From the NCBI GenBank assembly GCA_035506675.1, contig DATJOX010000041.1, positions 36,475 through 100,474 on the forward strand: a stretch of 64,000 bases of DNA, written 5' to 3'. The notes beneath the pieces were generated by a model. That model saw only the letters and a list, made by a program, of their open reading frames with translations, did no database searches and was not told where the DNA came from. Positions 6,169-43,502 of the stretch are shown here, one piece after another. The translations under genes and the position numbers were made by a program. This DNA comes from Methanomassiliicoccales archaeon (lineage in GTDB: Archaea > Thermoplasmatota > Thermoplasmata > Methanomassiliicoccales > UBA472). The first letter of the stretch is position 1, and every line of letters starts with the position of its first letter.

Positions 6169-6768
6169 CTAGCCGATGATCGCCGAGAGCGAGCTGTTCG
6201 AGAAGAGCAGCGCCGCTTCCACGAGCGCGAGGATCCCGAGGATGAAGAGCACCGGCCTCCAGCTCACGATCGCGCCCGCCAGGTCGGCGAAGAACTCCGC
6301 CACCCCGAGCACGCCGTAGACCAGCGCCATCACCACCAGCGCGATGATCACGATGACGATGGGCGTGAGGAACCCCGTGTGCGCGGACTTCTCGATCAGG
6401 TACAATCCGACGCCGGTGATGAGAGCCGCTACGAGCGAAATGATCAGCGCGACCTTCACCTTTCGGAACACGCGCATGAACAGCCCGAAACCGAGGATGC
6501 CAGTGATCCACATCGTCGAGCCGGGCCAGCCGCCGTTGAGCGCGATCATCACCGCTTCGACGATCATCACTGCCCCAACGATGAACCCGAGAGCGACCGC
6601 GATGTTGTCGATCCTCGTCTTCTTGCTCCTCCCCACGATCGCGATCACGAGCGCGATCAGGCCTCCGAGGAGGAGCAGGAGTTCGGGCATCGGTGACGCG
6701 GTCAGTTCGAACGCCATGCTGGAGAATATTGGCCCGACCAGTATAATAATTGCGTGCGTGCGCAGCAA
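6169..6768 (-). CDS. hypothetical polytopic membrane protein
   Basis: 199-aa ORF made almost entirely of hydrophobic helices. No family recognised. Confidence 0.55.
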   Translation of the reverse strand: MLRTHAIIILVGPIFSSMAFELTASPMPELLLLLGGLIALVIAIVGRSKKTRIDNIAVALGFIVGAVMIVEAVMIALNGGWPGSTMWITGILGFGLFMRVFRKVKVALIISLVAALITGVGLYLIEKSAHTGFLTPIVIVIIALVVMALVYGVLGVAEFFADLAGAIVSWRPVLFILGILALVEAALLFSNSSLSAIIG

Positions 6769-16712: not shown

Positions 16713-16819
16713 TGCCGGGGACGGGGTTCGAACCCGTGACCTTCGGATCTCCCTGGATGGGGTCTGGTTAGACTGAATCCCTATGAGTCCGACGCTCCAC
16801 CAGGCTGAGCCACCCCGGC
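16713..16819 (-). tRNA. tRNA-Met (CAU) elongator type, or tRNA-Ile2, with 33-nt intron
   Basis: Minus strand: GCCGGGG-UG-GCUC..GAGC-G-UCGGA-CU-CAU-A[intron]A-UCCGA-AGGUC-ACGGG-UUCGAAC-CCCGU-CCCCGGC-A. G1:C72 excludes an initiator. Confidence 0.88.
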
Positions 16820-34323: not shown

Positions 34324-34854
34324 TCACAAAGGATGAGCCCTGCGCCAGTCCTCGCGGATGACCGCCATGATGACGTCATCGGCGTACTCGTCGTTCTTGA
34401 AGTGATTGTGTCGCAGCAAACCCTCGCGCTTGAAACCGCATTTCTCATAGCACGAGACGGCGCGCTCGTTCTTCTGGTCCGCGTATAGCCAGACGCGCTC
34501 AAGGTTCATCTCGTCGAACATGTAGCCGAGGAGCACGTTGATCGCGTCCCGCCCGTAGCCCCGGCTCCAATGATCCTTCTCGCCAATCGCAATCCCGATG
34601 TCCGCCTTGCGATCGTGATAATCGACGTGGATGATCCCGATGTTGCCGATCAGCTTTCCATCGAGGGTCTCTATCGAGAACACTCTTTCCTCGCGATCCC
34701 GAAGGTGCTCGAACCAGCGCTCTTCTTCCTCCATGCCCATCGGGGGCGAGCGCAGCAGGAATCGCGTTACCTCTAGGTCGTTGAACCATCTGACGAAGGC
34801 CGGAAGGTCCGCTCTTTCGACCGCCCTCAGCCGGACGAGCTTACCCTGAAGCAT
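34324..34854 (-). CDS. GNAT N-acetyltransferase (RimJ/RimL-like)
   Basis: LRAVERADLPAFVRWFND ... IAIGEKDHWSRGYGRDA ... ENERAVSCYEKCGF. Confidence 0.8.
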   Translation of the reverse strand: MLQGKLVRLRAVERADLPAFVRWFNDLEVTRFLLRSPPMGMEEEERWFEHLRDREERVFSIETLDGKLIGNIGIIHVDYHDRKADIGIAIGEKDHWSRGYGRDAINVLLGYMFDEMNLERVWLYADQKNERAVSCYEKCGFKREGLLRHNHFKNDEYADDVIMAVIREDWRRAHPL

Positions 34855-35392
34855 CCTTCTTCCTCCTGTGATCGTCCACCAATATGCTCATCCGGCGTGC
34901 GTCCTGCCATCGCCCCTTGTGGAAATGATCCTGGCGGTACGTTCCCTCATCCACGAATCCGCTCGCCCGGTAGCAGGAGATGGCCCGCTGGTTGTAGGAA
35001 GCGACCCTGAGCCAGATGCGATGCAGATTGCGCGTGTCGAAGCCGTAGTCGAGCACCAGTCCGATCGCTTCCCTCCCGAGTCCCTGACCCCAGCGACTCG
35101 GCTCCCCGACCACGATCCTCAGCTCCGCGGCGGCGTTCCGCTGATCGATGTTCGCGAGCCCGACGACGCCGATCGGCTCATGCCCCTCGAGCATCTCGAT
35201 TAGGAACCACACGGAACCCGTGTCCCGCGTCATGCTCACCACGAACTCCGCCTCTTCCTCCATCGAGGTGGCGAAGTACATGTGCTCCGCCCCCAGGTCC
35301 TCGAGCACACGCTGATCGTTGAACCAGCGGTACATCAACCAGGTGTCCGTGGTCTCGAGCGGACGCAGCCCTATCCTCTTCCCCTTGAGCAT
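34841..35392 (-). CDS. GNAT N-acetyltransferase (RimJ/RimL-like)
   Basis: LRPLETTDTWLMYRWFND ... VVGEPSRWGQGLGREA ... YNQRAISCYRASGF. Start at MLKGKRIG. Its 3' end overlaps the next GNAT start by 14 nt. Confidence 0.8.
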   Translation of the reverse strand: MLKGKRIGLRPLETTDTWLMYRWFNDQRVLEDLGAEHMYFATSMEEEAEFVVSMTRDTGSVWFLIEMLEGHEPIGVVGLANIDQRNAAAELRIVVGEPSRWGQGLGREAIGLVLDYGFDTRNLHRIWLRVASYNQRAISCYRASGFVDEGTYRQDHFHKGRWQDARRMSILVDDHRRKKDASG

Positions 35393-35477
35393 TAGGCTGG
35401 GTATCCTCGCCGCCACCAAAAAGGTTGCCGTGACCGCCCGCAAAGGAACATAAACGAGAAGTGTGTTAGGCCGTCGC

Positions 35478-36110
35478 ATGGACCTGAAGATCGTCCTCAT
35501 GGGCCCGCCCGGCTCGGGGAAGGGCACTCAGACCGAACGCCTCTGCGTCGAGCTCAAGCTCACTAAGATCTCGACGGGCGACCTGCTGCGCGAATCGGTT
35601 CGCCTCGGCACCCCTCTCGGGACGAAGGCCAAGTCCTTCATGGATGCCGGCAAGCTCGTCCCAAATGAGCTGGTCATCGACCTCATCAAGGAGAAGATAA
35701 AGAACGTGAAGGGCGGAGTGATCCTCGACGGTTTCCCGCGCAACCTCGAACAGGCGGAGATGCTCGACAAGATCACCAAGGTCGATATGGCCATCGACCT
35801 GCAGGTCGACGAGGAGAGACTCGTGAAGCGCTTGACGCTCAGGCGGACGTGCCGCAATTGCGCCTCGGTCTACCACCTAGAGTTCAATCCGCCGAAGGTC
35901 GACGGGAAGTGCGACAAGTGCGGCGGCGAGCTGTATCAGCGCTCGGACGACACGGAGAAGACCGTGCGCGAGCGTCTGCGCGTATACAAGGAATCGACAT
36001 TCCCGCTCATCGAGTACTACAAGAAGAAGGGCATACTGAAGGCGGTCGACGGAGAGGGCGATATCGCCGAGGTCTACGCGCGCATCGTCAAGGCGATCAG
36101 GTCGAAGTGA
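35478..36110 (+). CDS. adk: adenylate kinase (bacterial-type with Zn lid)
   Basis: IVLMGPPGSGKGTQ P-loop. LID with CRNC...CDKCGGEL. Confidence 0.9.
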   Translation: MDLKIVLMGPPGSGKGTQTERLCVELKLTKISTGDLLRESVRLGTPLGTKAKSFMDAGKLVPNELVIDLIKEKIKNVKGGVILDGFPRNLEQAEMLDKITKVDMAIDLQVDEERLVKRLTLRRTCRNCASVYHLEFNPPKVDGKCDKCGGELYQRSDDTEKTVRERLRVYKESTFPLIEYYKKKGILKAVDGEGDIAEVYARIVKAIRSK

Positions 36111-36278: not shown

Positions 36279-37568
36279 TCACGCGATGAAGTGGTGACGC
36301 AGCTTCGTCACATCGCGGAACGGCACCACACCGATGATTCGCTCCTGCTCGTCGACCACTGGAATCGCACGGAAGTCGTACCTCTCGAAGAGAGCCTGCG
36401 CCTCCTTGAGCGTGCTGCCGGGACGTAGCGAGATGACGTTCGTCGTCATGATGTCCTGCATGAGCGCCGTGTCCGCGGCGGCCAGAAGCTCCTTGACATC
36501 GATGACCCCGAGCAGCCTGCCCTCGTCGTCCACCACGTAGAGGTACATCACGATGTCCTGGTTCTTCGCCATGTGATGGTACTGCAGCTGCGCCTGCTCG
36601 ACGGTCATTCCTGGCTGCACACGCACGAAGTGCATGGTGGAGTAGTTCGCGACGCGCTCCTCCTGCCTCTCCATGATGGCGCGCACCTTGTAGGCGGTAT
36701 CTGGGTCGAGGAGTTCGAGCAATTCGCTCGCGTCCGAGGCGGGGAGCGCGGAAAGGAAGTCGGCCGCCTGTCCCGGGGACATCTGCTTGATCAAGAGGGA
36801 CATCTGCTCTCTCGATATGAAGGGGACGAGTTCCCTCTGCACGTTCGGGTCGATCTCCTCCAGCGTGTCGGAGGCGTGCACGGGTTCGAGCTGGTTGAAG
36901 ACGACCATACGCTGTTCGCGGTCCAGCTCCTCGATCATGTCCGCCAGGTCGACTGGCTTGACCTCCGAGAGCTTCTCCCTCAGGACTTTTAACTTGATGT
37001 TGCCCTTGAACGTGCTCAGCGAGGGTGAAAGAGGCGCGACGTAGAGCCAGGGGATAACCTGGGTCGTCTCCTGCTCGACCTGAGGAGCACGCGCATCTGC
37101 GGATCGCCGGAATCCGAAGCGCCGCATGCGGCCATATCGGCTCGAATCCACAGAGGTGACGAGGAGCTTGCCGCGGGTCTTGACGAGTATCAGATCGTAA
37201 ACGATCTCGACCTCGGTGTCGTTGATGTCCAGGACCTTCTTGTCCAGGACGTGGTCGCGGAGCAATAGGGACTGCTCGTTCGGCTCGCCGACATAGGGGC
37301 CGAGGTCGGTCACGTCGAGCGTCACCTCCTCCTTGTTCATTGAGCGCACCTTCTCCCAGGGCACGATCAGCATCTTCTCTCCGAAGGGCCTTGAGAGAAC
37401 CAGGTGCGTGATCTCCGCGAATTTGTCGTGGTCGACTGCGATCATGTCCTCGAGCTTGCCAATCTTCTTCCCCACCACCGTGGCCCTGATGCCGAGCAGT
37501 TCGCTGAGATACAGTTTCTCCTCGGCGCCGCCGTTGTTCTTCCCAGCCGCTTCTGCCATCCAGTCCAC
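36279..37568 (-). CDS. soluble PRC-barrel + MgtE_N + CBS-pair protein (no MgtE membrane domain)
   Basis: N-terminal PRC-like region (LGIRATVVGKKIGKLEDMIAVD...LIVPWEKV). MgtE intracellular N-domain pattern (DLADMIEELDREQRMVVFNQLEPVHASDTLEEIDP...). Then two CBS repeats, and the ORF ends right after the second CBS. Confidence 0.7.
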   Translation of the reverse strand: MDWMAEAAGKNNGGAEEKLYLSELLGIRATVVGKKIGKLEDMIAVDHDKFAEITHLVLSRPFGEKMLIVPWEKVRSMNKEEVTLDVTDLGPYVGEPNEQSLLLRDHVLDKKVLDINDTEVEIVYDLILVKTRGKLLVTSVDSSRYGRMRRFGFRRSADARAPQVEQETTQVIPWLYVAPLSPSLSTFKGNIKLKVLREKLSEVKPVDLADMIEELDREQRMVVFNQLEPVHASDTLEEIDPNVQRELVPFISREQMSLLIKQMSPGQAADFLSALPASDASELLELLDPDTAYKVRAIMERQEERVANYSTMHFVRVQPGMTVEQAQLQYHHMAKNQDIVMYLYVVDDEGRLLGVIDVKELLAAADTALMQDIMTTNVISLRPGSTLKEAQALFERYDFRAIPVVDEQERIIGVVPFRDVTKLRHHFIA

Positions 37569-37569
37569 C

Positions 37570-37782
37570 TCACACCGATGTAAAGAATTTGTAGATCAGG
37601 ATTCCGATGATGAATATCAGATAGAGCCTGAGCGCCAATAAAGCGATCTTCGTGGCCCTGGTCATCTTGATTCTCGGCGTCCTGTACTTGTCCGTGATGT
37701 CCAGCAGCGGCCTGAAGCGCCCGCTGAACAGGCGGCGCGCGATGCTCCTCCGCTTCCCGTCGGTCATCTCGTCAGCCTCCAA
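37570..37782 (-). CDS. small single-pass membrane protein
   Basis: 70 aa with a basic N-terminus and a C-terminal TM (IALLALRLYLIFIIGILIYKFF). It overlaps the Nramp-like stop by 11 nt and ends 1 nt before the next start. Confidence 0.5.
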   Translation of the reverse strand: MEADEMTDGKRRSIARRLFSGRFRPLLDITDKYRTPRIKMTRATKIALLALRLYLIFIIGILIYKFFTSV

Positions 37783-39055
37783 AGGTTCCCGGGAACACGA
37801 CGCTGAGCGCGTAGAGCGTCGAGAGCAGGATGATCATTCCCACGATGCCCCCACCGATGATGTTCTGCCGGCGGGTGTTCTTGTACTTGCCCATCAGCTC
37901 CTCGCTGTTCAGCAGCAGCAAGAGGAACACGAGAGCTGCGGGGAGCAGCGTCACCGCGATCACCTGAACGAAGAGGGTCACAGTGACGAGGACCTGCTTC
38001 GTTGCGATCAGCACCACGAACCCTGCGCTCACGAGCAGGACCAGATAGAAGAGGTAGAACCAGCGCCCCTCCTTGATGTTGTTGTTGAGGGAGTGCGCCC
38101 AGCCGAAGACCTCGCCCACGGCCCAAGAAGAGGCGAGAGAGATGCAGATCGCCCCCAGCAGGCCGGCGTCGAACAATCCGATCGCGAGGATCGTCCCGAC
38201 CCAGTAGTTGACGCCCTGAAGCGCCACCGCCGCCTGAGCGGCGCTCTCGATCTGTTGTCCATATAGAAGGGTGCCCGTGACGATGATCAGGAAGACCGCC
38301 ACGACGACCGTCAGCGCGGAACCGATCGCGGTATCCAGCTTCCCGAAGGGGATGTCCTTCTCCTTCATCTGCTTGTCCACCACGCTGCTCTGCTGGAAGA
38401 AGAGCATCCAAGGAGCGATCGTGGTTCCGATGTTGGCCATCAGGAGGAAGAACAGGTAGCCGAGATTCCCTCCGGGGAGATTGGGGATCACGCCCCCGAG
38501 GACCTGCCCCACATTCGGGTGCACCATGATCGCCGCGGGGATGTAGATGAGGTTCAGGACGCAGAGCGCCAGCACTATCTTCTCCCACGTCCAGTACTTG
38601 CCGTGGAGCACGAGCGCGAACATGAAGACGGACACAATGACAACGGTCACGATGGGCGGGACCCCGAAGATGCTCAGGGCGGCTGTCATTCCGATGAACT
38701 CTGTGATCAAGGTGAGCCAGTCGGTTAGGGCCAGATCCCCCAGAGAGAACCACCCCCAGAACGAACCGAATGCGTCGAATATCGCTTCCGCATGGCCGCG
38801 CTTCGTCACCGCCCCGAGACGAACGGTCATCTCCTGCACGAAGTAAGCGATAGGGCCAAGAAGGATCAGGAACCAAATGAGATTGTAGCCATACGCGGCA
38901 CCGGTGACGGAGTAGGTAGTGATGCCACCGGCGTCATTGTCAGCGACCATCACGATGATGCCCGGGCCCGCGAGAACGAAGTATATTTGGAGCGTCCGGA
39001 TGAGCCGCCGGTAGCGGTAGTAGAAGCGCGCTCCAAACTTCATGGGAACGGGCAT
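37772..39055 (-). CDS. SLC11/Nramp-family transporter with NRMT-like (Mg-type) site substitutions
   Basis: Nramp topology and motifs, but the TM1 DPGN is DAGG (VADNDAGGI) and the TM6 GAxxMPH is GTTIAPW. The alternate-frame listed ORF 37764..38876 was rejected. Confidence 0.8.
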   Translation of the reverse strand: MPVPMKFGARFYYRYRRLIRTLQIYFVLAGPGIIVMVADNDAGGITTYSVTGAAYGYNLIWFLILLGPIAYFVQEMTVRLGAVTKRGHAEAIFDAFGSFWGWFSLGDLALTDWLTLITEFIGMTAALSIFGVPPIVTVVIVSVFMFALVLHGKYWTWEKIVLALCVLNLIYIPAAIMVHPNVGQVLGGVIPNLPGGNLGYLFFLLMANIGTTIAPWMLFFQQSSVVDKQMKEKDIPFGKLDTAIGSALTVVVAVFLIIVTGTLLYGQQIESAAQAAVALQGVNYWVGTILAIGLFDAGLLGAICISLASSWAVGEVFGWAHSLNNNIKEGRWFYLFYLVLLVSAGFVVLIATKQVLVTVTLFVQVIAVTLLPAALVFLLLLLNSEELMGKYKNTRRQNIIGGGIVGMIILLSTLYALSVVFPGTFGG

Positions 39056-39166
39056 GGCACATGCCCGATTTATAAATTCCCGACTGCCTTGGGCAATGGT
39101 TGCAGCCGCTCCTCATCGCGCGACAGTTTTTAGATGACGGGGTCAATCCGGTCCCGAGGGGAGTGA

Positions 39167-40499: not shown

Positions 40500-43400
40500 G
40501 TGATGACAGAAATGCGAGCGAGGAAATTGGCAACAGGCATGCTGGTTGCAGCTCTGCTCTTGTCGTCCTTGGCGTTTATCATGCCGAGCGCGACCGTCAG
40601 TGCTGCCGTGGCATCCAATGCACAGATTTCGTTCAATGTAGTTGACAGTGCCGCTAACCCCGTTCAGGGAGCCACTGCGACGATAACTGAGGTTCACACG
40701 TCGAAGCAATACACGGCCACAAGCGACGCTGGCGGTCTGGTGACGTTCCTCGGAACTGGGACAAACGCAGTCCTCCCGGGATACTATCTCCTGACGGTCT
40801 CTAAGCCCAGTGTATACTCGAACGTCGAGTACCCCAGCATCGTCAAGTTCACCGGCACCGGGCCGGTCGCCCTGAACCTGGTAACGCTGCCGGCGACGAC
40901 CGGGACGCTATCGTTCACGATCACGCAGGCGGTCGGCGGAGCGAACGCAGCGAACGTCGTGGTTAAGATTTACGACGTGAACTCCGTGAGCAAGCTCCAG
41001 AGGAGCATCCCGACCTTCACCGGAACGAGCTCGGTCAACGTGTTCCCCGGCACCTACAAGGTGATCGTGACCGCGCCGGACCTTGAGCAAGAGGTCGGCA
41101 CGTTCACGGTGACCGCTTCCGCGATCACCCCGGTGGCCTTCGCCCTTAACCCGGCGGTCGCTGTCACTGGCTTCGTCTATCGGGACAACGTCCCGGCGAC
41201 GGGCGTGACCGCGTACCTGGTCAGCACCAACACCGCGCTTGATGTGGACATGAGGATCGTGCAGGCGCGAACCGTCGGATCGAACGGCTTCAAGTTCGAC
41301 GCCTACGCGGGCAACTTCAACATGATCGTCGACGCCACGGACGCGACGGCGAACATGACCGCACAGACGATCCTTCCGGCGAGCCCAGTGCTCTTCAACC
41401 GCGTGAATGTCTCCACTGCGACCGGGCAGTCCGACGTCAGCAACGTGGTGTTCGCGAACAACAACTGGAACACCTTCAACCTGACGCGCACCCTGAACGC
41501 GGGATTCGACATGCCGATGGCCAACATCGCCTACGGCATACCGAACATCCGCATGCAGATCGACTTCGCGTTCGGTAACGGCGACGGCACGGTGACGCAG
41601 GCGGAGGTCAACGCCTTCACCGCTCGAGCGCAATCGTTCGGGCCCGTGAACGCCACCTCTGACTTCATGACGAAGGTCAACAGCACCAGCTTCATCGTTG
41701 GCAGCACGGACTTCTCGCAGTTCGCCTTCAGCGGCCTGACGGGCAGCGTCAGCGCGAAGACCCCGTACGTCCTGAGCTCGCGCACCCAGTACAATGCGCA
41801 GACCACCCTCGGCAACGGCTACAACTCGTATACGGTGCTCGGGTATTGCAAGTACGCGACCCCCTCGATGGCCTTTACGACCACCTTGGACTGGCCGAAC
41901 GGGTACGAGATGACGAGCAACACCACGCAGTCGACCTACGTGACGGTCTCCGGCTATCTCAATGTGACCATCTCGACCACGCAGCGCCCGACCGGCGTCT
42001 ACGAGCAGGTGACGATGGGCATCCAGAAGTCGGTGGCTCCGAACGCGGTGGGCGCGGTCGGGGTTCCGTCCAACACGGCTTACGCGGTGACGGGAACCAG
42101 TGGCCAGCTTCTATACTACATCGTCTCGACGAACAAGCCGATAGTGTTCACCGGCAACGGCTCCTCTGACCCCAACGGCAACCCACTGAAGTACAGCTGG
42201 AACTTCGTAGGAGTGGGCGCTGTCGGACCGATTGCAAGCGCCTGGACGACGTTCACATTTGGGGCAGCCTCGTTCAACATCACGGTCGTCCTGACCGTGA
42301 CGGACGTGGCGGGTCTGACCGCGACGAACACCTTCTACATCAAGGCGGACGGCATCAACCCAGTGGCGGACTTCTCCGTCGTGAACAAGACCGTCTCCGC
42401 CGGCCAGTTGAACCTCGACCAGAACTCCGCGACCGTGTTCAACGGCGGACTGTCGTACGACCACATCGCCTCGAACGCTGACGTGGGCGTCATCAAGACC
42501 TACGTTTGGACCTGGGGCGACGGCAACACGACCACCGTGGGCGTCGGGCAGAACGTGAACGTGACCAAGACCTACGCTCGCCCGGGCACCTTCAATCTGG
42601 TGCTCAACGTGACGGACGTCGCCGGACACTACAGCCTGAAGTCGATCGTCGTCAAAGTGGCGGACAAGACGCCTCCGACGATCTCCTTCTTCGTGAGCAA
42701 GAGCGGCTCGACCGCTTCGATCCTCACCGCTCAGGAGAACCAGACCCTGGTGCTCAACGCGAACGCGACCTATTCGCAGTTCGAGCCGTTCAACTCTCTG
42801 AACTTCACCTGGAACATGGGTAACGGAGTGGTTCTGTACGGCAACTACGTCGCGAGCACCGCGCAATACCCCAACGGCTTCTACTACACGGGCATCAATA
42901 CCTACACGATCAAGCTGACCGTGAAGGACCAGTTGAACAACGCGGCGAACAAGACGATGTCTTTCACCGTGACCTCCCAGCCGCGGCCGGACCTGCGCAT
43001 GATCTCCATGAGCGTCTCGCCGACGGTTCTGAGCGAGGGCGAGACTGGCACGATAACGGTCAACCTGACGAACGTGGGCACCCTGCTCGCCGGAACGCCG
43101 ACCGTGGAGTTCTTCATCCTCTCCGCGAGCGGTTCGAAGACGAGCATCGGCACGAGCACGGACATGACCGTGAACGGCACCCCCGCGACCCAGTTGAAGC
43201 CGGGCGAGTACGGTCTGATCACCTTCAAGTGGACCCCCGACACCAAGGGCAACTACACCATCCTTGGCAGCGCGTCCACCGTCGGTGAGATAAACAAGGC
43301 CGACAACACCGACACGCTGGTCGTGACGGTGAACGAGGCGGCCTGGAAGGCGGTGGCGCTCTACGGCGGAATCTTCGCGGTGATCATCGTGGTCATCGTG

Positions 43401-43502
43401 CTCTTCTACATGCGCAAGAGGCTCCCGAAGCTCGGGCGCAAGAAGAAGGGCGAGGAGACCGTCGGCAAGAAGCCGACCGAGCCCCAGCAGAAGAAGAAGT
43501 AG
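40500..43502 (+). CDS. large cell-surface (S-layer-type) glycoprotein candidate with PKD-like repeats and C-terminal membrane anchor
   Basis: Signal peptide (LVAALLLSSLAFIMPSATVSA). PKD-like motifs (GSSDPNGNPLKYSWNF; YVWTWGDGNTT). Many N-x-S/T sequons. C-terminal TM (LYGGIFAVIIVVIVLFY) plus a Lys-rich tail. Confidence 0.75.
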   Translation: MMTEMRARKLATGMLVAALLLSSLAFIMPSATVSAAVASNAQISFNVVDSAANPVQGATATITEVHTSKQYTATSDAGGLVTFLGTGTNAVLPGYYLLTVSKPSVYSNVEYPSIVKFTGTGPVALNLVTLPATTGTLSFTITQAVGGANAANVVVKIYDVNSVSKLQRSIPTFTGTSSVNVFPGTYKVIVTAPDLEQEVGTFTVTASAITPVAFALNPAVAVTGFVYRDNVPATGVTAYLVSTNTALDVDMRIVQARTVGSNGFKFDAYAGNFNMIVDATDATANMTAQTILPASPVLFNRVNVSTATGQSDVSNVVFANNNWNTFNLTRTLNAGFDMPMANIAYGIPNIRMQIDFAFGNGDGTVTQAEVNAFTARAQSFGPVNATSDFMTKVNSTSFIVGSTDFSQFAFSGLTGSVSAKTPYVLSSRTQYNAQTTLGNGYNSYTVLGYCKYATPSMAFTTTLDWPNGYEMTSNTTQSTYVTVSGYLNVTISTTQRPTGVYEQVTMGIQKSVAPNAVGAVGVPSNTAYAVTGTSGQLLYYIVSTNKPIVFTGNGSSDPNGNPLKYSWNFVGVGAVGPIASAWTTFTFGAASFNITVVLTVTDVAGLTATNTFYIKADGINPVADFSVVNKTVSAGQLNLDQNSATVFNGGLSYDHIASNADVGVIKTYVWTWGDGNTTTVGVGQNVNVTKTYARPGTFNLVLNVTDVAGHYSLKSIVVKVADKTPPTISFFVSKSGSTASILTAQENQTLVLNANATYSQFEPFNSLNFTWNMGNGVVLYGNYVASTAQYPNGFYYTGINTYTIKLTVKDQLNNAANKTMSFTVTSQPRPDLRMISMSVSPTVLSEGETGTITVNLTNVGTLLAGTPTVEFFILSASGSKTSIGTSTDMTVNGTPATQLKPGEYGLITFKWTPDTKGNYTILGSASTVGEINKADNTDTLVVTVNEAAWKAVALYGGIFAVIIVVIVLFYMRKRLPKLGRKKKGEETVGKKPTEPQQKKK

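Follow-up and report, generated by a model that had tools for sequence, protein, structure and literature searches.

Nramp-related magnesium transporters (NRMTs) constitute a fourth prokaryotic route of Mg2+ uptake, and the role of their MgtE-like neighbor has been in question since 2014. In the NRMT substrate site, the aspartate of α1 is kept and its asparagine is replaced by glycine; in α6, alanine becomes threonine and methionine becomes alanine, the two histidines of α6b are lost, and the glutamine of α10 and the glutamate of α3 are kept (Ramanadane et al., 2022; PMC8806188). EleNRMT, which has 11 transmembrane (TM) segments, transports Mg2+ and Mn2+ without proton coupling (PMC8806188). 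As described in passages of Shin et al. (2014; PMC4072509), most NrmT genes neighbor a gene for MgtE's N-terminal cytoplasmic domain, for which those authors proposed cytoplasmic feedback regulation or, alternatively, a chaperone role. Here we describe a related locus in a 64,000-nucleotide stretch of contig DATJOX010000041.1 from a Methanomassiliicoccales archaeon (the whole stretch is hereafter the window). It encodes an NRMT-type transporter, a micro-protein with a single membrane helix, and a protein with a PRC-barrel region, an MgtE_N domain and a CBS pair (for brevity, the sensor). We read this operon as a regulated NRMT-type divalent-cation uptake system made of a permease, a detached TM subunit and an MgtE-derived sensor, an interpretation to which we give slightly better than even chances.

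Parts of this interpretation have precedent. The nrmT and MgtE-N-like pair of Shin et al. (PMC4072509, Fig. S5/S6) has the same two large components and the same feedback logic as the window, at least in the portions of that paper drawn on here; these portions mention neither a third single-pass component nor a PRC-barrel, unlike the window cassette. Since the two-gene pairing and the feedback idea are in print there, the main interpretation of an earlier, sequence-only reading of this DNA—a three-component, Mg2+-gated uptake system—is not new. Its linkage of three components and its MgtE sensor module hold up, whereas the gating is proposed rather than observed.

The three open reading frames (ORFs) run along the minus strand from 39055 down to 36279, nearly free of spacers, where the sequence-only reading had placed them (Table 1). 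The Pfam family Nramp (PF01566) covers the full length of the transporter, which contains MVADNDAGGITTY and NIGTTIAPWMLFFQQ, the two motifs quoted in that reading. Its best match among solved structures is EleNRMT (7qia; E 1e-55, 193 bits), to which it is 34% identical; structures of MntH, DMT and NRAT score no more than 76 bits (about 1e-20 for MntH). A grouping with the Mn2+/Fe2+ Nramps, which the sequence-only reading had named as an outcome that would refute it, is therefore not what is found, on a comparison of match scores as distinct from a tree. The α1 motif reads DAGG in place of DPGN, with D41 and G44 aligned to D55 and G58 of EleNRMT, and the α6 stretch G210-T211-T212-I213-A214-P215-W216 is identical to the GTTIAPW of EleNRMT. 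W216 and Q221 stand in for the two α6b histidines (Trp and Asn in EleNRMT), while Q364 of α10 and E119 of α3 are invariant in the alignment of relatives. By every published sequence criterion of the clade, the transporter is an NRMT, as the sequence-only reading had proposed from its DAGG and GTTIAPW substitutions. By analogy with EleNRMT, it most likely imports Mg2+, and also Mn2+, uncoupled from protons. That these motifs recur in the 80 loci described below was set aside as evidence: the loci were retrieved with the NRMT motifs, and the argument would be circular.

The likeness extends beyond the transporter. EleNRMT of Eggerthella lenta (7QIA; PMC8806188) and CabNRMT of C. acetobutylicum (Shin et al., 2014) share with the window the SLC11 fold, the motifs NDAGGI(T/S)TYS and IGTTIAPWM, the α10 Gln and α3 Glu, the absence of α6b histidines, and a neighbor gene encoding PRC, MgtE_N and CBS domains. 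The window differs from EleNRMT in being archaeal, in its reversed, transporter-first gene order, and in its separate micro-protein gene; neither the acidic plug-like segment nor the C-terminal TM helix seen in the Eggerthellaceae sensor is present in the sensor of the window. Unlike the Clostridium operon, the window operon has no M-box riboswitch.

The sensor matches MgtE_N (E 9e-20) and a CBS pair (E 9e-22) in Pfam. Its PRC-barrel match is below threshold on its own, but PRC is matched in 19 of 22 orthologs (best E 2e-12). Behind the PRC-barrel comes a second beta-rich module, which reaches about residue 140. Residues 190–418 align with the cytosolic domain of T. thermophilus MgtE (E 2e-32). 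An AlphaFold2 model based on an alignment of 86 relatives reaches a predicted local distance difference test score (pLDDT) of 89, and its top Foldseek matches are structures of the MgtE cytosolic domain (E 4e-20). No hydrophobic segment was found in the sensor, and neither the MgtE pore domain (PF01769, five helices) nor the plug helix is present. Given these absences, the protein represents the cytosolic module of MgtE and not an MgtE channel, in agreement with the sequence-only description of a PRC-barrel, MgtE_N and CBS protein without a pore. Relative to T. thermophilus MgtE (PDB 2YVX, 2ZY9, 5X9H), the sensor shares the N domain and CBS pair, has an extra N-terminal PRC-barrel region of about 190 residues, and lacks the plug helix and five-helix pore; in the window, the place of the MgtE channel is taken by a LeuT-fold carrier that is unrelated to it and encoded in trans.

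The regulatory Mg2+ ligands of MgtE (E59, D91, D95, D226, D247, D250, E258 and D259; PMC5882242) were mapped onto the sensor through the same alignment. Four of the six positions outside the plug are kept (E59 as D231, D95 as D267, D226 as D395, and D247 as D416); among orthologs, hardly any variation is seen at the D416 position, and Asp predominates at the D267 position. Among the equivalents of the ATP-site residues of the MgtE CBS pair (Y170, R187, D188, N203 and F227; PMC5529423), Y339 and F396 are identical, K356 and E357 are conservative replacements, and T372 is changed from N203. Judged by these residues, the sensor module looks capable of binding ligand.

A HMMER search of 1.84 billion representative proteins returned 304 sensor relatives at E 1e-30 or better, and the best 150 were classified. 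These are mostly TM-less proteins of 405–450 residues; one has a single C-terminal helix, and 12, about 593–656 residues long, are of the PRC, MgtE_N, CBS and MgtE pore type. When six of the 12 were run against Pfam, PF01769 was matched in five and PRC in five. Such PRC-bearing full-length MgtE proteins (e.g., P0401, P0443 and P0455; full list in Table 1) have the same order of PRC, MgtE_N and CBS and align over nearly the whole sensor, but they keep the plug helix and the pore domain. With these 12 pore-bearing proteins among its best relatives, the sensor probably arose from a subfamily of MgtE that carries the PRC-barrel, the pore having been lost. Our literature search found no paper naming both PRC-barrel and MgtE, and none joining "Nramp-related magnesium" with CBS.

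Between the two large genes lies the micro-protein, with one hydrophobic helix at residues 41–57. Its first 41 residues hold 13 Lys or Arg against three Asp or Glu, a charge distribution that suggests an N-in orientation. The family alignment has a conserved core, P31-R-I-x-x-T36 ... L46-R47-x-Y49-L50 ... K60-F61, with Ile or Val at its third position. No Pfam or NCBIfam family was found for the micro-protein (22 members, no consistent match at E up to 1), and a search of PDB profiles with the family gave only chance-level matches. At least 2065 clusters of homologs exist; the best 120 listed are 54–83 residues long, and among the matches listed those for which the source gives a name are called "hypothetical" or "uncharacterized" protein. 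The micro-protein appears to be undescribed in the literature. Enterobacteria are known to have small membrane proteins acting on Mg2+ or Mn2+ transporters, namely MgtS, MgtR, MgtU and MntS. The micro-protein resembles these as a tiny single-pass or amphipathic protein on a cation transporter, a functional analogy; it differs from them in that no Pfam or NCBIfam relationship was found, in the transporters concerned, and in being, probably, an evolutionarily detachable part of the transporter. It is not a remnant of the first TM helix of MgtE, an origin that was considered and rejected, as the protein is unlike the MgtE membrane domains in the PDB, the PRC-type MgtE proteins, and the TM helix of the Eggerthellaceae sensor.

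The conservation of the cassette was assessed by searching for the two NRMT motifs in a single genome of each species. This gave at least 595 loci, of which the best 80 (54–85% identical) were analyzed; they come from Methanomassiliicoccales, Methanoregula, Methanothrix, Bathyarchaeia, Nitrososphaerota and more than 10 bacterial phyla. In each of the 77 loci left whole by the contig boundaries, the transporter is followed downstream, on its own strand, by homologs of both the sensor and the micro-protein. The gene order of the window is shared by 64 loci, with spacers of about 0–10 nucleotides (median), and in 13 more distant loci the small protein comes last, after the NRMT and the sensor. 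The linkage of the three genes, on whose conservation the sequence-only reading had made its proposal depend, is thus kept throughout. The three-gene observation is not attributable to chance, and the micro-protein is a real, conserved third component of the cassette. A fourth conserved gene or a dedicated regulator was considered and rejected, as the next commonest family occurs in 13 of the 80 loci. In the absence of any such fourth gene, the cassette is the unit, and its distribution marks it as a self-contained one that moves between archaea and bacteria.

All 72 complete sensors of the window's clade are without a TM segment. A fusion of sensor and small protein in the loci with the order sensor then small protein was likewise rejected, since a stop codon always stands between them. 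In six of these 13 loci (L059, L068, L076, L077, L079 and L080), the small ORF is in frame with the sensor, with one stop codon between; readthrough there would give a sensor–TM fusion like the Eggerthellaceae protein, although chance alone would give one-third, a share that six of 13 does not clearly exceed. Across loci, the sensor tail L.H[HR]F and a micro-protein extension EIN.KY occur together in 39 loci, are both missing in 12, and are discordant in 14. This co-variation of the sensor tail and the micro-protein N-terminus is a hint only, drawn with crude regular expressions and confounded by phylogeny.

Alternative architectures offer a view of how the three parts may relate. Long NRMT-like proteins, annotated in RefSeq at 540–558 residues, occur on replicons of Ralstonia, Burkholderia, Caballeronia, Pandoraea, Methylobacterium, Rhodococcus and Streptomyces. 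Their site reads DAGA or DAGG with GTTVAPW, and they are 38–42% identical to the window transporter. The roughly 95 additional C-terminal residues comprise one helix (TM12), a basic WRMPPL linker and a last helix (TM13), and TM13 carries the hallmark of the micro-protein, P..T...LRGYL...K, in register. When the small-protein family was compared with these extensions by hhalign, profile against profile, the two matched over 40 columns at a probability of 90% (E 1.6e-6). The topology also corresponds: 11 helices leave the C-terminus outside, TM12 returns the chain to the inside, and TM13 runs from N-in to C-out, like the free micro-protein. The long proteins thus resemble the window system in their NRMT-like site and their P..T...LRxYL...K helix, and differ in fusing that helix to the transporter by way of TM12. 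Given this homology, the micro-protein is probably a detachable subunit of the transporter.

The distribution of sensor genes is more varied. The long NRMT-like genes of Rhodococcus and Streptomyces have a TM-less sensor gene upstream; on the other replicons with the long form, no sensor gene was found within 3.5 kb. Acidiphilium and A. caldus have a free small gene behind the transporter and no sensor nearby. Being fused to transporters in some genomes and retained without a sensor in these two, the micro-protein travels with the transporter rather than with the sensor. In the EleNRMT clade (Paraeggerthella and Xiamenia loci), the sensor gene lies directly upstream of the NRMT gene and abuts it; no homolog of the small protein was found in the Eggerthellaceae loci examined, and the sensor there ends in an acidic plug-like segment and, in place of the micro-protein, a TM helix of its own that aligns with TM1 of MgtE. 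With this TM-anchored form as support, we infer that the sensor acts at the membrane. One further locus (L083, JARCCX010056829.1) has an EleNRMT-like gene, 69% identical to EleNRMT, preceded by a gene for a 709-residue protein free of Pfam domains, with no usual sensor gene. The micro-protein, its homology to the transporter extension, the alternative anchoring of the sensor, and the ancestry in PRC-type MgtE all seem to be absent from the searchable literature.

Plasmids carry both the cassette and other NRMT-like genes. The three-gene cassette is present at 66% identity on the conjugative IncHI1B plasmid pPSV of Citrobacter freundii (L085, NZ_LR881935.1, 5001-7713), where it adjoins an ArsR/SmtB regulator, a heavy-metal P-type ATPase and a Tn3 transposase. 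The small ORF of this copy (6220-6450 frame, profile E 4.5e-16) is missing from the PLSDB gene table, which lists the transporter and a "CBS domain-containing protein" and is incomplete. The cassette also occurs on the Serratia marcescens plasmid CP068396.1. Other plasmid-borne NRMT-like genes (L090-L094, L086 and L089) belong to Burkholderia, Caballeronia, Rhodococcus, Methylobacterium, Pandoraea, A. caldus and Acidiphilium; they often lie among RcnR/FrmR-like repressors, DmeF and other cation diffusion facilitator (CDF) pumps, CadR, P-type ATPases and MerE, which suggests a role of these genes in metal stress. In Acidiphilium cryptum, an MgtC/SapB gene stands behind the small gene.

The operon of the window may therefore be pictured as a carrier with a borrowed regulator, in the sense already given. 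The 11-TM transporter would be the permease: powered by the membrane potential and uncoupled from protons, it would let in hydrated Mg2+, and Mn2+ as well. The 65-residue protein would be a detached TM subunit, equal to TM13 of the longer NRMT-like proteins, with its basic juxtamembrane segment in the cytosol; the PRC-MgtE_N-CBS protein would dock on the cytosolic face of this membrane complex and slow uptake once the cytosol has enough Mg2+, perhaps along with ATP. An uncoupled carrier would thereby gain a feedback brake of the kind built into MgtE and CorA. What the sequences show are the homologies, the signature of the substrate site, the strict linkage of the three genes and the fusions; that the proteins form a complex, which way regulation runs, what ligand is sensed and what is transported are points that we infer. 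In a bolder form, which we entertain with more doubt than confidence, the cytosolic Mg2+/ATP sensor of MgtE would be a portable gating module that regulates a LeuT-fold carrier in trans within an obligate three-subunit complex, the single-pass subunit serving as its docking or coupling site.

A number of observations weigh against a regulated uptake system of this kind. No M-box or other riboswitch was found upstream of the NRMT gene, as tRNAs are all that Rfam reports for the window, 11 bacterial loci and one Eggerthellaceae locus; riboswitch control was rejected for these loci. To our knowledge, an M-box would not be expected in an archaeon. Shin et al. treated the M-box, which is not universal, as a marker of Mg2+ specificity in the passages concerned (PMC4072509). 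Within the sensor, two Mg2+ ligand positions are changed (D91 to G263 and D250 to K419), the D395 position (equivalent to D226) is variable among orthologs, and the plug helix with the Mg2/Mg3 ligands E258 and D259 is absent, as the protein ends seven residues past the equivalent of D250. The homology between the micro-protein and the transporter extension spans 40 columns, mostly hydrophobic, and a plain hidden Markov model search gives E values of 0.03–0.5. Several plasmid relatives sit in heavy-metal resistance islands, hinting at roles beyond Mg2+ supply. Finally, as reported in parts of PMC4072509, the A. capsulatum NrmT-group transporter, an Acidobacterium protein from the wider group, fully rescued an Mn2+ transport mutant and Mg2+ transport only weakly, and its co-expression with the MgtE-like partner in B. 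subtilis left Mg2+ rescue unchanged; this is the only published co-expression test of such a pair known to us, and two proteins were used.

It is possible, then, that the architecture is as proposed and the substrate is Mn2+ or another transition metal, with the sensor answering to that metal or to the energy state of the cell. We consider this, the main alternative, unlikely though not negligible. The A. capsulatum result favors it; that NrmT-group protein has an adjacent MgtE-like gene (part of PMC4072509), and EleNRMT carries Mn2+ too (PMC8806188). The lack of an Mg2+ riboswitch at the NRMT loci examined, the plasmid copies beside ArsR/SmtB or RcnR/FrmR-like regulators, CDF pumps and heavy-metal P-type ATPases, and the partial retention of MgtE Mg2+ ligands in the sensor all point the same way. 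The substrate site argues otherwise: the soft methionine that selects transition metals is alanine here, the threonine that is important for Mg2+ in EleNRMT is present, and the binding-site motifs are identical to those of EleNRMT, the one NRMT shown to carry Mg2+.

A different role for the two smaller proteins is improbable but has precedents. The sensor could be an assembly or stability factor, a metal chaperone or a buffer instead of a gate, and the small protein could stabilize the transporter much as MgtS and MgtU stabilize the Mg2+ transporters MgtA and MgtB in enterobacteria. Chaperone activity was raised by Shin et al., and NrmT transporters work without partners in heterologous hosts, according to passages of their paper (PMC4072509). 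The homologous module of MgtE is, however, a well-characterized Mg2+/ATP-dependent gate (PMC5882242, PMC5529423), and the nearest relatives of the sensor are real MgtE channels. That the sensor and the single-pass protein instead form an independent, minimal MgtE-like channel, co-expressed as a second uptake route, is scarcely credible: the 13 loci ordered sensor then small protein do mimic an MgtE cut after one helix, and the Eggerthellaceae sensor is fused to one helix aligning with TM1 of MgtE, but the small protein is unlike any MgtE membrane domain and homologous to a part of NRMT-like transporters, its one helix has no MgtE pore residues, and its gene persists where the sensor is missing.

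Start codons and flanking features complete the description of the regulated uptake operon proposed for the window. The micro-protein had been given 70 residues and an 11-nucleotide overlap with the transporter; the maximal ORF does begin at TTG 37782, but the better-supported start is ATG 37767, which leaves a gap of four nucleotides behind the NRMT stop, has GGAGG eight nucleotides upstream, and matches the homologs and the public gene call. The sensor had been given 429 residues, and that ORF does exist from GTG 37568, one nucleotide past the preceding stop, but ATG 37559, preceded by GAGGTG, is the likelier start. That gene call, made independently on an identical contig, has products of exactly 427, 65 and 426 residues. 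Upstream of the transporter, the putative promoter includes a palindrome (7+3+7) that shares bases with the gene's first ATG. This element may serve as an operator, or may be the sign of a leaderless mRNA read from ATG 39043; given the usual distance from TATA box to transcription start in archaea, the transporter mRNA may be leaderless, with translation from this second ATG yielding 423 residues. A conserved operator was rejected, as the palindrome is not kept in L001, the closest relative. About 110 nucleotides upstream lies a divergent purP-like gene (DUF1246/DUF1297), and a convergent tRNA-Gln closes the operon downstream. The closest relatives of the transporter (85%) are in Methanomassiliicoccales metagenome-assembled genomes and the surrounding genes are housekeeping genes; by its gene content and nearest matches, the host is archaeal.

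Table 1. Features of the NRMT cassette in window coordinates, with the pore-bearing relatives of the sensor.
Feature	Position	Strand	Length	Basis or details
NRMT-type SLC11 transporter gene	37772..39055	-	427 aa	Pfam Nramp E 5e-76; EleNRMT 7qia best structural match
Single-pass micro-protein gene	37570..37767	-	65 aa	Homolog in all 77 uncut loci; public gene call
Sensor gene (PRC-barrel region, MgtE_N, CBS pair), TM-less, cytosolic	36279..37559	-	426 aa	Pfam; T. thermophilus MgtE alignment; AlphaFold2; Foldseek
Sensor PRC-barrel domain, residues ~29-79	37323..37475	-		Pfam PRC E 0.0017; recurrence in orthologs (see text); AlphaFold2 beta strands
Sensor MgtE_N helical domain, residues 201-297	36669..36959	-		Pfam; T. 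thermophilus MgtE alignment
Sensor CBS pair, residues ~303-420	36300..36653	-		Pfam; T. thermophilus MgtE alignment
Putative archaeal promoter	39050..39076	-		TATA-like TTTATAAAT at 39076-39068; palindrome GGGCATG-tgc-CATGCCC at 39066-39050
PRC-bearing MgtE-like relatives of the sensor				P0401, P0431, P0437, P0443, P0444, P0455, P0463, P0472, P0473, P0497, P0499, P0510

Elsewhere in the window, an Rfam tRNA match on the minus strand at 16713-16819 spans 107 nucleotides, suggesting an intron-containing archaeal tRNA; ARAGORN, at its default bacterial settings, did not report this one. On the plus strand at 40500-43502, an ORF of 1000 codons encodes an N-terminal signal-like helix, a long region rich in Thr, Ser and Asn, and, at the C-terminus, a TM helix followed by a basic tail; its counterpart in the public contig has PKD and CARDB domains, and the product is probably a surface protein. 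At 34324-35527 on the minus strand, two slightly overlapping ORFs of 176 and 228 residues are similar to each other and have the look of N-acetyltransferase paralogs.

A potential-driven, uncoupled Mg2+ carrier needs a brake, and the cassette may show where that brake comes from. The existence of a conserved but uncatalogued micro-protein means that co-expression should take three proteins, not two, and the copies of the cassette on Citrobacter freundii and Serratia marcescens plasmids place it in genetically tractable hosts. If the bolder, three-subunit form of the proposal is true, the published negative result with the A. capsulatum pair might reflect a missing third subunit, and the cassette would be a clear case of the ligand-sensing domain of a channel being reused to control a secondary-transporter fold.

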